From assembly GCA_965217865.1 (NCBI GenBank), contig CBDCJO010000001.1, forward strand, positions 224,001-288,000: a stretch of DNA of 64,000 nt, read 5' to 3'. The translations under genes were made by a program, and so were the position numbers. Below the pieces are notes generated by a model that worked only from the letters and a program-made list of their open reading frames with translations, made no database searches and was not told the DNA's origin. Position 1 is the stretch's first letter. Each line of letters starts with the position of its first letter. This document shows positions 41,344 to 45,401 of this stretch, in pieces. This DNA is from Candidatus Latescibacterota bacterium (GTDB lineage: Bacteria > Latescibacterota > UBA2968 > SICM01).

Positions 41344-42804
41344 GTGCGTTCCGGATCCCTTTTTTCCTCTGACGCTCAACGCATCGGATTGGACCCTTTG
41401 ACGATGTTCATTATGTCAGCTTCCACGTTTTCCAGTTACATATCCCCAAAAACCCTCCTGCTCCTCATATTCCTCTCGGCTTTCGGCTTCGTCCGCACGG
41501 CCATCGGGCAGAATGCCACGGTCTATGACTACACGGTGCCCGTGAGCAGTGCAAAAAGCCTTCAGTTCGACTTCGCCTATTCATACTCGGCAACTGGGGA
41601 GACGGTAACGAACAGGAATGGAAATCTTGTTCTTTTCTACGAGAAATTTTACGATTCCCTCCCATTCGCCTATTCCCTCGACGTCAACGGCTCGGCGGTG
41701 CTCACCCATACAAACCCCGCCGGGGATTTCAATCTGAGCGGACGGACGGATGCTATAGACGGAGCTCTTCTTGCAAACTATTTCTTCCTTCAGGGGGGAA
41801 TGGGTTCCTCCCGGACCGACACCTCCCGATTCAACACTCTCTTCGACCTGAACCGGGACGGGATTCTGGACACCGCCGACCTCGACGAATTCTCGAATGT
41901 ATTCGGTCAAAAGGCGGAGGATGACCTGACATACAAGAGTGGGTTTTCAGGGAGGGGGAAAAAGTACTTCCAAAACGGGTCAGATTTTTTCGGGTTCGGA
42001 GATTTCAATATTCGAATGAGCGATACGTTCGACCGACCTGACACGGATGTTACGCCCGGGTTGGGTTACGGTCGCTTCATCAGTGCCACCCCCCTTGCCA
42101 AGGCCGTTCGGATCGAAGCGTTTCTGCTTAAGGAGAAGGCCGCGTCTGGTTACCTGCCCCGGGAAAAGCTCGTGGAGCTCGGCCACGTTATCCAGCGGGA
42201 GGATGAATTCAAAGAGCGCTACGGTCCCACCTACCGCAAATGGTGGTTCGAAGAGATGGAACGGGTTATCATCGCGTCGGGTGTGGCCCCGAAGGGAATC
42301 GGCGCGGGAGGGATTCTGCGGATCAACGAAGTCCTTTTCGAGGAGCGAGTCAACGAGCGGTTTTACGGATGGGAGACATCCGCTGGCGTGAACTTTCAAA
42401 CGACCTCCCCATTCACAGGCCAGGCGCGTAGAGATCCGGGTGCGAGTTTCGGGTTGCGTTATGCGAAACCTATCGGATGGAAGCACCAGGTCAGTGGAAG
42501 GATCGACCTGGCAAGCCCCCTGACGGGACGGTTCGGTAAAGAATACAAACTCACATTCTCCGAAGATTATGTCTACGAGATGAGCAATCGGGTCGACTTT
42601 ATTATCAGGGATAACCTGGCGCTCGATATCCAGGACGGCACCGGGACAAAGAACCGACACATCATCAGCAATGTCCTTTCGGCTGCATTCATCTTCTTCG
42701 TCGAAAACAAGACGACTTTTTCAGTGAACGCCCAATTCGACAAGGTCGAAGGGAGTCCTCTCCTCCAGAGCTATTCGGGGAACCTGAATTACAGAATTTT
42801 TTAA
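41344..42804 (+). CDS. Outer-membrane beta-barrel-like protein with inserted dockerin/EF-hand module
   Basis: Signal peptide, amphipathic strands, terminal YRIF; two DxNxxGxxD loops; true start may be ATG 41404. Confidence 0.65.
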   Translation: MRSGSLFSSDAQRIGLDPLTMFIMSASTFSSYISPKTLLLLIFLSAFGFVRTAIGQNATVYDYTVPVSSAKSLQFDFAYSYSATGETVTNRNGNLVLFYEKFYDSLPFAYSLDVNGSAVLTHTNPAGDFNLSGRTDAIDGALLANYFFLQGGMGSSRTDTSRFNTLFDLNRDGILDTADLDEFSNVFGQKAEDDLTYKSGFSGRGKKYFQNGSDFFGFGDFNIRMSDTFDRPDTDVTPGLGYGRFISATPLAKAVRIEAFLLKEKAASGYLPREKLVELGHVIQREDEFKERYGPTYRKWWFEEMERVIIASGVAPKGIGAGGILRINEVLFEERVNERFYGWETSAGVNFQTTSPFTGQARRDPGASFGLRYAKPIGWKHQVSGRIDLASPLTGRFGKEYKLTFSEDYVYEMSNRVDFIIRDNLALDIQDGTGTKNRHIISNVLSAAFIFFVENKTTFSVNAQFDKVEGSPLLQSYSGNLNYRIF

Positions 42805-43877
42805 CCCCCCTTCGGCGCTTTGTAAAAAGGCGTCTCCACAATCTTCCCTTTTATCCCACTTCCTTCCGATAGAACTTCCACCTGGCTCCCCGGCTCGTTG
42901 CAGTCCCGCTTGACATAACCGAACGCGATGATCGCGTTGAGCGACGGTGAAAAAATACTGCTGGTCAATCGGCCGATCTCCACCTCATCCTTCGTCACGC
43001 GGTCGCCGGCCGAGGGTAAAACATCCCCCTCGAACACGAACCCGACCAGATGACGCCTGGGCTTCCCCAGGTTGGTCATCTTTGAGATCACTTCCTGGCC
43101 GACATAACAACCCTTGTCGAGACTAACCGCGTGAGGGATCGAAGATTCGATCGGAGTTGAACGCTCCTCGATGTCGACACCGCATACGGGGATGCCCGCC
43201 TCCATCCGCAACAAACCCAATGTCGAAAGACCGACCGGCTTCACGTCCTTTCCCGAGGATTGAATCCGGTTCCACATCTCTTCTGCCTTTTCGGGGTGGG
43301 TATACAGGACATACCCGATCTCCCCCGTGTCCTCCCATCGAACAACCAGATGATCCCGTTCCTGGGCGGAACCGTATGGCTCCAACCCGGAGAGGTCCGT
43401 CTCCAGGATCGACCCGATTACTTCACCCGAAGCTCGGCCGGAGATCGCGATAGCGGACAACTGTTCCGTCACATCCTCGATATCAACGTCCTCCGAAATC
43501 AGGTAACGGTCGAGCGTTTCCCGGACCTTCTTTTCCAACCCTGCGTCCACGTCGAGCAGAAAATATTCGGGCCGACAGTATACCTTGAGATCCGCTAGAG
43601 TCTGGCCTTGCGCCGTCATCAGGACAGCATAATGACCCTGCCCGTGTCTCAATCCCTTGACGTCGTTTGTGATCATACCGTGGAGAAATGGTGTTCGGTC
43701 CTCTCCGGTCAACTTGAGTTTTCCACGATGGCTCAAGTCGATCAAGCCCGCCGCTGACCTGACGCACCGATGTTCGGAAAGAACATCGCCATAGTCGGCA
43801 ACGGTCTCCCAATCCTTTACGTTCGAAAATCGCGCACCAAGTTTTCGATGGAGTTCATAGAGTGGAGACCGATTCAT
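42801..43877 (-). CDS. GcvT/YgfZ family folate-binding protein
   Basis: DLSHRG, LRMEAG and KGCYVGQE (YgfZ signature). Confidence 0.88.
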   Translation of the reverse strand: MNRSPLYELHRKLGARFSNVKDWETVADYGDVLSEHRCVRSAAGLIDLSHRGKLKLTGEDRTPFLHGMITNDVKGLRHGQGHYAVLMTAQGQTLADLKVYCRPEYFLLDVDAGLEKKVRETLDRYLISEDVDIEDVTEQLSAIAISGRASGEVIGSILETDLSGLEPYGSAQERDHLVVRWEDTGEIGYVLYTHPEKAEEMWNRIQSSGKDVKPVGLSTLGLLRMEAGIPVCGVDIEERSTPIESSIPHAVSLDKGCYVGQEVISKMTNLGKPRRHLVGFVFEGDVLPSAGDRVTKDEVEIGRLTSSIFSPSLNAIIAFGYVKRDCNEPGSQVEVLSEGSGIKGKIVETPFYKAPKGG

Positions 43878-44001
43878 CTTTTCTTCCTCCTTCTTAGTTC
43901 TTCTTCAAACATTCTAAAATTTAACCGATCTAATTTTAATCTTAAACCTAAATGTGATCGACCGACTTCAGAAAAAATTACATTCGAAATTAAATTTTTT
44001 C

Positions 44002-44030
44002 TTGCCTTATTCATTAAGCTGGACTATATT
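44002..44030 (+). promoter_or_regulatory. sigma70 promoter with AT-rich upstream region
   Basis: TTGCCT-17 bp-TATATT. Confidence 0.7.
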
Positions 44031-44210
44031 TGGTTATCATTAGAGCGTTAGATACAACTTGTTGGGTTCCTCTCCTTAACCTCCGTTCAGCCTTCTGGGT
44101 GTTTTCAGCGTAGAATTGATCTCTCCCCCACTCTGCGCGTTGCTTTTCCCGTTAAAGCATTCGAAGATTCCGTTGCGTGAAACCGCAACAGGTTAACGAC
44201 ACGCATTTTT

Positions 44211-44481
44211 AAAGAAGATGGGGCACAGGTAAAAATGGACGTTCACTCAAGAGGCGTAACACTCGCTGCTCACGAGTCACGCTGTAGTCGAAGGAGGTGA
44301 CGCGCATGCCGGCGAAGAAGAAAGCGGCAAAGAAGAAGAAGAAAGCTGCCAAGAAGAAGGCTCCAGCGAAGAAGAAAGCTGCCAAGAAGAAGGCTCCAGC
44401 GAAGAAGAAAGCAGCAAAAAAGAGAAGGAGATAGGGAGTGTGAACGAACCCCTTTTAAACCTGTAGCCCCATCTCATCTTT
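44211..44481. repeat. ~40-bp imperfect inverted repeat flanking the small ORF
   Basis: Arms at 44211-44248 and 44436-44481 (AGATGGGGC-ACAGGT / ACCTGT-A-GCCCCATCT; CGTTCAC / GTGAACG). Confidence 0.85.
44306..44434 (+). CDS. Histone H1-like Lys/Ala-rich small protein (42 aa; not in ORF track)
   Basis: MPAKKKAAKKKKKAAKKKAPAKKKAAKKKAPAKKKAAKKRRR; perfect SD AAGGAGGTG; 33-bp tandem repeat. Confidence 0.88.
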   Translation: MPAKKKAAKKKKKAAKKKAPAKKKAAKKKAPAKKKAAKKRRR

Positions 44482-44518
44482 CAAGCCGACGGTCCAGCGC
44501 CGTCGGCTTGGTTTTTTT
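44482..44518 (+). terminator. Intrinsic terminator
   Basis: CAAGCCGACGG-7 nt-CCGTCGGCTTG then G-T7. Confidence 0.9.
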
Positions 44519-45121
44519 CATTCAAAGGACAACCCCAAAGCGGCCAGATCCATCTGAAGCTCCTCGGCGGTTCGAAAAACAATCCCATGCATGCCCTGTC
44601 GGGAGGCCGCCTGGACATAGTCCGGAATATCGTCGATATAGACACAGACATCCCCGGAATGTCCCGCCGCTTCAATCGCTGCCTGATAAATCCGCGGGTC
44701 GGGTTTCGAGCAGCCGATCCGGTAGGACAGTATAAACCGATCGGGTAAACCCAGGACATCGAAACGTTCGACCAGATGTTGAAAATGCATCTCATTTGTG
44801 TTGGACAAAAGGACGATCGGGTATCGGCCTTTGAAAACACCGAGCAGGTTCTCGACACCGGGATTTGGAAAAAATGTCGCTCCAGATCTCTCGGAACCGT
44901 TCGAACGGGATGGACACACCCAGATGTCGAGTTGTCCAGGTGTGGAACTCCTGAGACGAAATCCGCCCCTCATCATATCCATGATCCGTGCCGTACAGGA
45001 GATGCCGTACTTCCGGCTCCGGCCTCCCGGACATGGACGCAAGGGCTCTAGAGGTGATCCCGTGATCAAATCGGACGAGCACGCCCCCAAGATCTGTGAT
45101 CAAGGCGCGAATCCGTGGCAT
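44518..45121 (-). pseudogene. HAD-like hydrolase (YihX-like), frameshifted
   Basis: Motif I (DLGGV) in one frame; LSNT, KPDPRIY and IDD in another; break at T6 run 44869-44874. Confidence 0.8.
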
Positions 45122-45401
45122 TTCCAAATTCATAAACACGGTTCGTGGAAGGATCGAATCGGCTTCGGATTTGAGTCAATCCGAAAAACCCCCGCCGCAT
45201 CCCCTCAACGAATTTATACCCACCATTCGAAAGATGCAACCTGAATTATCCCTCGATCTAGGTTTGCCAGAAGGATGGAACGCACCGTGGCAGGAGCCAA
45301 AAAAGAGTGGACATCCATGTGCTCTTATGCTATATTTTTCATAGAAATAAACCGTTAGTCCATCTTGTAAATACCCCTGGAAAACCCAAAGGGATATCGA
45401 T

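Follow-up and report, generated by a model that had tools for sequence, protein, structure and literature searches.

A conserved, predicted end-to-end RNA stem around a lysine-rich micro-gene in one small bacterial family

The 64,000-nucleotide stretch of Candidatus Latescibacterota DNA analysed here (the window) contains a short transcription unit in which a 42-codon ORF for a very basic peptide is enclosed by a predicted long-range stem between a segment of the 5' leader and a segment lying directly against the terminator. This RNA motif is conserved and undescribed, and the gene that it surrounds belongs to a class of micro-genes that is widespread but unannotated. Whether the complementary ends act as a clamp that gives a processed, long-lived mRNA seems to us evenly balanced. 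The unit is a compact test object of ~300 nt for the role of the polylysine micro-genes that begin with MPAKK, and for the question of why structured RNA surrounds them in several lineages; the reach of the finding is limited, as only one small family was found to have the stem. The features of the unit and its two neighbours are these:

44002..44030, plus strand: sigma70-type promoter found by scan, with invariant hexamers; the longest RNA contig of run X1 starts at 44055
44037..44210, plus strand: variable 5' leader with a kept TGTTGGGT start block and an A/U-rich linker before the arm; its removal is predicted
44211..44246, plus strand: 5' arm, with outer helix 44211-44215, core AGATGGGGC at 44216-44224, ACAGGT at 44225-44230 and inner helices to 44246
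44214, plus strand: candidate processed 5' end, from an adapter-like end on one X4 contig in a single run, a hint only
44261..44277, plus strand: hairpin with a 5-bp stem and a 7-nt loop, CUGCUCA (44266-44272), the loop invariant in 5/5 sequences
44291..44300, plus strand: Shine-Dalgarno sequence (SD) AAGGAGGTGA, pairing with the tail of its own 16S rRNA
44306..44434, plus strand: ORF encoding an MPAKK-class peptide of 42 aa (K/A/P/R), with a coding signature in orthologues
44440..44481, plus strand: 3' arm, made of GTGAACG, CCTTTT, ACCTGT, bulged A44465, GCCCCATCT at 44466-44474 and TCTTT, adjoining the terminator without a linker
44482..44518, plus strand: intrinsic terminator found by scan, its stem kept in orthologues
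42801..43877, minus strand: YgfZ/GcvT-like folate-binding protein, divergent neighbour, context only
44518..45090, minus strand: HAD hydrolase, convergent, its stop codon overlapping the terminator U run, context only

The promoter was recognised by a consensus scan as TTGCCT-17-TATATT, with transcription predicted to start near 44037; both hexamers are identical across all five orthologous sequences and the promoter as a whole is nearly invariant, and despite this the distance from the predicted start to the arm ranges from 77 to 199 nt. The last 20 nt of the leader before the core are 65-80% A/U in each of the five sequences, and a leader hairpin (GTTGCG-TGAAAC-CGCAAC, 44170-44190) is found only in the window's own sequence. 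The SD forms 10 Watson-Crick pairs with the same genome's 16S rRNA at its 3' end, and SD, spacer and first codons are identical in 5/5 sequences. The terminator consists of a stem at 44482-44510 and a U run, so that the promoter, perfect SD, 42-codon ORF and strong terminator described in an earlier sequence-only reading all lie where that reading had put them. The divergent YgfZ/GcvT-like gene is also present at L002, L005, L025 and L027, and the position of the HAD hydrolase is taken by other genes in relatives. Further along the window a site at 45308-45336 strongly resembles a promoter (10 of 12, with TG); it lies upstream of a membrane ORF of 74 aa and a queA-like gene, and a block similar to this region also follows the unit at L002 and L025.

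The predicted fold pairs 44211-44246 with 44440-44481 through 33 pairs with bulges, the last pair adjoining the terminator hairpin, and the core helix has a predicted pairing probability of 0.97-1.00 in all five sequences. The earlier description of a ~35-bp stalk around the ORF holds for the stem itself, but 44436-44439 of the 3' segment then proposed are absent from the predicted pairs. When the 134 nt before the SD were set against the 48 nt after the stop codon, the best duplex in the window reached -39.3 kcal/mol (z -5.9), as good as none of 1000 dinucleotide shuffles; these segments were picked after the stem had been seen, yet were used unchanged on all control loci. In the same test each of six other family rows was matched by 0/100 shuffles. 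The whole 501-nt unit folds no better than shuffles (z -0.33), and the longest unbroken Watson-Crick helix of the stem is 9 bp in all five sequences. Each arm occurs once in the 6.4-Mb genome with orthologues at the same locus, and since the arms are single-copy a MITE, one of the outcomes that would have undone the original proposal, is excluded. A first stem test based on alignment scores was discarded for its excessive permissiveness. L022, L025 and L027 escaped it, and it picked out L077 (z 3.0), L103 and L073, none of which held in the energy-based duplex test, and L083, which shows 30 long-range pairs in its fold, has a z of +0.5 in the duplex test.

Five distinct sequences are available for comparison (the window, L025, L027, L005 and L022), the orthologues deriving from two other genomes of the same family and three metagenome contigs; L002, which has an N gap, was replaced by L025 in the structure counts, and L080 and L110, which carry the family's element, were counted with the family and neither as controls nor as independent sequences. 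In L002 the 3' arm and terminator occur twice around the N run (1258-1434) and only once in L025, which looks like a scaffolding artefact. Twenty-one pairs were chosen, 18 long-range and 3 in the hairpin, and over the five sequences 105/105 cells are paired, against 37-49% in slid controls. Four of the 21 pairs change on both sides, a count reached by 3/500 shuffles, and all of these double-sided changes come from one contrast, that of the window with the other four sequences. Of 14 core pairs 13 show no variation whatever; an invariant core and compensatory changes are thus seen beside a diverging leader. The comparison of orthologous loci that had been suggested as a check on the stem thus came out in its favour, with the 18 long-range pairs formed in 5/5 sequences and the arms both kept and covarying around the ORFs.

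Among the genomes searched the RNA element is found only in one small family. A DNA search of 168 genomes of the phylum gave strong matches only in the window's family (2/2, plus the window's own genome), the next best having an E-value of 0.004, and a covariance model, R1, run on 151 genomes scored the three family genomes at 73-114 bits and all others at 27 bits or below. None of the 22 weak R1 loci inspected has a K-rich ORF in its SD-led frames, and the loop heptamer is present in one; by eye, the arms are likewise not seen around longer H1-like ORFs of other families (L006, L007, L009, L010 and L013). Seven matches in a metagenome scan comprise three orthologues (L022, L025 and L027) and four chance matches in unrelated DNA, and the two matches from a viral scan both lack the 5' arm or hairpin. 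The titled records that bear the element include one labelled Candidatus Latescibacterota and another labelled uncultured Gemmatimonas sp. An Rfam scan of the unit returned nothing at the gathering score and only chance-level E-value matches, and the literature available in full text, with few subscription papers and supplementary motif lists lying outside its scope, was not found to describe either the motif or the MPAKK micro-genes.

The hairpin between the 5' arm and the SD is absent from the first description of the locus. Its CUGCUCA loop is the same in every orthologue and two of its stem pairs change on both sides; among the 1147 CTGCTCA sites in the genome only this one has such a stem, and there are 12 near-matches to the hairpin elsewhere in the genome (up to 3 mismatches). 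The predicted probability of closing is low to moderate, 0.00 in the window and 0.02-0.66 in relatives. A tRNA-like anticodon arm was considered and rejected, as the size fits but the sequence differs from the genome's tRNA-Ser(GCU) arm.

The peptide consists of 22 K, 3 R, 13 A and 3 P besides its initial M and has no acidic residue. Its orthologues, of 23-25 aa, change in length without leaving the frame, differ synonymously at third positions and end in TAG or TAA, and in RNA contigs there are in-frame deletions of 3 and 6 nt within the ORF; the in-frame length changes together with the synonymous substitutions indicate that the ORF is coding. The earlier comparison with histone H1 is borne out in the basic, K/A/P-rich composition but not at the level of family, there being 0 Pfam or NCBIfam families for the 42-aa peptide; in the ESM Atlas only clusters of hypothetical proteins are found, the nearest named cluster having HC2 on only 20% of its members (score 0.88), which is a lead only. 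From its composition the peptide is expected to bind nucleic acid, and composition is also the sole ground on which it might be proposed to condense the nucleoid.

A scan for an SD followed by an MPAKK start gave 65 loci (within the range L050-L114) in many phyla, with record titles that name Bipolaricaulota, Patescibacteria, Zixibacteria, Acidobacteriota, Nitrospirae, Chloroflexi, Verrucomicrobiota and one archaeon. L081, whose ORF runs past the end of its locus, was left out of all counts, and 57 of the 64 ORFs that are complete do not exceed 70 aa and have at least 44% K+R. These micro-genes span 12-116 aa, have a very strong SD and usually a terminator-like hairpin. When the duplex test was applied to the loci outside the family, 0/62 gave a significant stem around the ORF (the best being equalled by 7/100 shuffles), whereas all family rows are significant; the micro-gene is thus common, and the stem has been added to it in one lineage. 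SWIB domains are linked to the nucleoid, and L076 and L098 have the same K-rich start joined to SWIB-like domains (below cut-off), and in L007 a complete SWIB domain is joined to a K-rich region; on account of these fusions we lean towards DNA as the target of the peptide. Other fusions are to zinc-ribbon-like sequences (L083 and L097) and to a desulfoferrodoxin N-terminal domain (L070), and L054 holds two in tandem.

Structured leaders of other kinds are visible elsewhere in the class. Eight loci from Thermoanaerobaculia/Acidobacteriota (L053, L064, L085, L089, L093, L096, L101 and L104, at ~701-737) share a near-invariant nested leader of ~90 nt with an anti-SD-like CUGUCA, and for an invariant UUCCGGGAUUC just before their terminator the leader offers a potential partner in GAAUCCGGAA (10 bp with one bulge). 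This is a possible second 5'/3' interaction, for which no covariation was found in these loci and the shuffle test was not significant. In seven others (L051, L063, L072, L086, L091, L095 and L111, Bipolaricaulota and Thermotogae-labelled) the leader carries CCUGUCACC and then a pyrimidine run complementary to the SD region, and two hairpins follow the stop codon.

Metatranscriptomes were consulted as assembled contigs of RNA runs, eight runs from seven studies being examined out of 18 listed with a small word share; the runs were chosen by their match to this stretch and cannot rank genes. All eight hold a contig from a close relative that lies across the 5' UTR and ORF, 112-314 nt long with 0-9 other letters: X1 at 44055-44374, X2 at 44229-44410, X3 at 44258-44460, X4 at 44214-44403, X5 at 44233-44402, X7 at 44224-44374, X12 at 44257-44374 and X17 at 44229-44374. 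Seven start within 44214-44258; the one that starts at 44055, X1, fits an unprocessed transcript. In the X4 contig (depth 48.7) a 20-nt adapter-like foreign end is joined directly to 44214, and this loose end matches the SMART primer stem printed in PMC7325058, ending in GGG like a template-switch oligo and two letters short of the printed version. The joint suggests, as a hint only, a plus-strand RNA with its 5' end at the base of the stem, that is, with the leader cut off; X5, a replicate from the same study, starts at 44233 and the adapter is absent from the loose ends shown. The starts of X12 and X3 at 44257-44258 adjoin position 44256, where strains vary, and the contigs that end at 44374 do so inside a 33-nt repeat, and both may be assembly breaks, contigs alone being unable to fix RNA ends. 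No RNA contig was found over 43900-44043 or beyond 44460 in X1-X4, nor over 43500-44201 or 44418-45100 in X5, X7, X12 and X17. Mapping of RNA ends and junctions had been put forward as a check on the stem, and on contigs it showed RNA of relatives in every run examined and no joint between the 3' and 5' arms in any, the only joints lying within K-rich repeats, in a kind of data that drops rare forms. The same marine and sponge runs (X1-X5, X7, X12 and X17, against 44308-44420) contain many other high-depth K-rich contigs, some with GGAGG leaders, and RNAs of polylysine micro-genes from other organisms seem to be common in such metatranscriptomes.

Beyond the complementarity and the conservation of the arms, the steps by which the ends might act as a clamp are ones that we infer. 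Transcription would begin near 44037, and a single-strand endonuclease, RNase E/G or RNase Y, would then cut the A/U-rich linker, leaving an RNA of ~305 nt (~260 nt in relatives) with its 5' end at the stem base near 44214. The new 5' end would lie inside a helix beside the terminator hairpin, so that both ends would be shielded and the mRNA long-lived, and the kept bulges would make the helix a poor substrate for RNase III. The perfect SD would drive translation of a polycation whose nucleic-acid target could be DNA, rRNA or its own mRNA; in three of the five sequences the SD would be held by the inner 5' arm for as long as the 3' arm is still to be made, and translation would be mostly from finished transcripts. 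Genes over the cut-off are present for RNase III and RNase E/G and, twice, for RNase Y, the latter two of full length (G000:C2:5768764-5770287 and 5621491-5623017), together with six PF00216 matches of the HU/IHF family located elsewhere; no RNase J gene was found over the cut-off in this genome. Folding predicts that the ribosome-binding site opens at lower cost with the 3' arm in L025 (by 2.3 kcal/mol), L027 (2.4) and L005 (4.7), since the SD is otherwise taken up by the inner 5' arm. The cost with the 3' arm and without it is 12.0 and 11.8 kcal/mol in the window and 13.1 and 13.3 in L022, which is no gating effect, and the prediction of SD gating in only some of the sequences is one of several points that weigh against the end clamp. 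An invariant core would fit sequence-specific protein binding equally well, the double changes all stem from one contrast and the adapter from one contig in one run, the pathway known for hbs cannot be identical given that RNase J has no match above the cut-off, and 62 other MPAKK genes do without such a stem. Of the fates named at the outset for the looped-out ORF (excised, stabilised or circularised), stabilisation remains the best reading; nothing points to a circle, and the stem is unlike the processing stems of rRNA.

It was considered whether the stem might instead be a substrate of RNase III, which would make staggered breaks close to where the GC-rich core ends on its inner side and so excise the ORF loop or start decay. 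The enzyme is encoded in the genome, the contigs X2 and X17 from two studies start at 44229 and X3 ends at 44460, G44229 pairs with C44460, and a cut with a 2-nt overhang would yield 44229-44462, which the contig ends fit within 2 nt. It also speaks for this reading that, according to PMC3867540, a substrate needs a minimum of only ~11 bp from the cut site and bulges can limit cutting to one strand. Against it, the stem has 9 unbroken pairs where the rRNA processing stems of this genome run to 17 and 19 bp without a break, and it has no motif in common with them. X4 runs intact through 44229 to 44214 and X7 reaches 44224, X3 has a depth of only 2.6, and stalling of reverse transcriptase at the GC-rich core would also yield starts near 44229, so that we judge this reading unlikely, if worth keeping in mind. 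The 16S and 23S processing stems (G000:C2 2782068-2787500) share a CGAAUA/UAUUCG motif of their own, and inspection by eye of the sequence after the 23S stem revealed no 5S gene. Rather unlikely, too, is that the main job of the stem is that of a translation gate, in which the SD of the nascent RNA is covered by the 5' arm until the 3' arm pulls that arm away, the CUGCUCA hairpin binding a regulator, perhaps the peptide itself, and a potentially harmful polycation being made only from finished transcripts. In L025, L027 and L005 GUGUUACCUC in the arm is the main predicted partner of the SD (0.82-0.83 without the 3' arm), its pairing with the SD also appears in the consensus structure, anti-SD segments are visible in MPAKK leaders of Bipolaricaulota and Thermoanaerobaculia records, and metastable structures that hide the SD uncouple transcription from translation in the aapA3 mRNA, according to PMC6733600. 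However, the 3' arm is without effect in the window and L022, within the arm the anti-SD segment is conserved least and the invariant core is situated away from the SD, and the SD is predicted to be mostly paired even with the 3' arm present (unpaired 0.25-0.49).

The invariant core raises the matter of protein binding more generally, and it is conceivable, though we hold it distinctly doubtful, that the processed 260-305-nt RNA is dual-function, its invariant closing helix and CUGCUCA hairpin binding a specific protein, so that it would serve as a stored ribonucleoprotein or, in a class with no detectable 6S, a substitute for 6S/Ms1 while the polylysine peptide encoded in the loop packages this RNA or the nucleoid; in that same doubtful reading the candidate binders would be RNA polymerase, a factor of the ribosome or of RNA decay, or the peptide. 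A narrower form, very unlikely in our estimation, is that of a 6S- or Ms1-like RNA that binds RNA polymerase and took up a peptide ORF in its loop. A length of 260-305 nt, paired ends, an own promoter and terminator and an invariant core suggestive of protein binding would suit it, and the core helix may resemble the closing stem of enterobacterial 6S. 6S RNA often lies next to zapA; here the gap between zapA and rny is 68 nt (L115, G000:C2 near 5770300-5770430) with a conventional 6S not evident, RF00013 matches 0/101 genomes of the class and RF01685 has no match in this genome, and the class may lack conventional 6S RNA. In relatives (L117-L145) the same gap is mostly ~70-150 nt with a terminator-like hairpin. 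Against the 6S- or Ms1-like form, there is no Rfam match at gathering or at E <1 in the region of the window and no 6S/Ms1 match there or in two orthologues, no long second stem lies beyond a central bubble, a single closing stem leading instead into a multibranch loop that bears the ORF, and at 30 loci the gaps downstream of zapA show no likeness to the arms by eye, the element lying beside ygfZ/gcvT instead. Other families of the class lack both RF00013 and this element, so that absence of 6S needs no substitute. For excision of the loop and its ligation into a circular mRNA the chance seems exceedingly slim: that the stem brings both ends together speaks for it and nothing else does, while the X4 contig is a linear 5' end on an adapter at the stem base and there is no match to a bulge-helix-bulge or a ribozyme family. 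Equally hard to credit, and largely refuted, is that the complementarity is a by-product such as a decayed MITE or chance pairing; the folding of the whole unit no better than shuffles and the mere five distinct sequences would allow it, but the single copy, the strength of the duplex, the compensatory changes and the invariant core beside a diverging leader tell against it.

Among known systems with paired ends, hok is a type I toxin mRNA with a 5'-3' long-distance interaction, and the earlier reading had named control of this type as a parallel. The parallel is not borne out by the predicted folds, in which the SD is not shut by the long-range pairing. As in aapA3 of Helicobacter (PMC6733600), a small ORF lies inside a 5'-3' pairing and metastable anti-SD pairing is possible in the nascent RNA; in mRNAs of the aapA3 type, however, it is the completed structure that conceals the SD, and activation comes with 3' trimming (same paper), whereas here the 3' arm frees the SD or leaves its cost about unchanged (lower or the same in 4/5, +0.2 kcal/mol in the window). 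In contrast to type I toxins the peptide is made of M, K, R, A and P only and has no hydrophobic segment, and a consensus scan found no minus-strand promoter or terminator site over the unit that would mark an antisense unit, the contigs being strandless. Membership of the type I toxin mRNAs is rejected, the SD not being hidden by the 3' end and a hydrophobic toxin being absent.

The chlamydial proteins Hc1/HctA and Hc2 (PMC3469542, PMC4355289 and PMC8343073) are similarly Lys/Ala-rich and very basic with K/A/P-rich repeats, but HctA is controlled in trans by the sRNA IhtA and the present unit would be controlled by a stem in cis; membership of the Hc1/Hc2 family is rejected in that there is no Pfam or NCBIfam profile match. 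With 6S (RF00013) and Ms1 (PMC9130861) the unit shares the form of a stand-alone RNA of a few hundred nt with paired ends, and it differs from both in the lack of a model match, of a bubble with a second stem and of a position at zapA, and in the presence of a conserved ORF. It is not counted as a 6S RNA (RF00013, RF01685), there being no covariance-model match and both shape and position being wrong.

The closest parallel is with hbs of Bacillus subtilis. HBsu is a protein of the HU family. PMC5737220 describes the hbs mRNA as having an exceptionally strong SD and a structured, processed leader, with a 14-bp pairing (-19 kcal/mol) between the 5' UTR and the sequence just upstream of the terminator that restricts cleavage by RNase Y and stabilises the primary transcripts. 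In the same paper, breaking either side of the pairing shortens the life of the primary transcript, compensation restores it and deletion of rnc is without effect; the pairing restrains cutting of the leader, and RNase J1 sets the mature end at the ribosome. Since pairing between 5' and 3' UTRs was already described for hbs (PMC5737220) and the peptide class is widespread and mostly without a stem, the suggestion that the unit is a new system in itself cannot be upheld. Set beside that of hbs, the stem here is longer and bulged (33 bp, -39 kcal/mol), the candidate processed end lies at the stem base instead of at the ribosome footprint, RNase J has no match, the product is a low-complexity K/A peptide and not HU, and there is the extra hairpin with its invariant loop. 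What the unit has in common with hbs is a short mRNA with an intrinsic terminator, a very strong SD, a 5'-UTR segment that pairs just upstream of the terminator, an encoded RNase Y and a small product that would, in our case by inference, bind nucleic acid. The likeness is likely to be convergent, the unit being a longer version of the same arrangement, and it would likely represent a second, independent case of hbs-like pairing between the ends of an mRNA.
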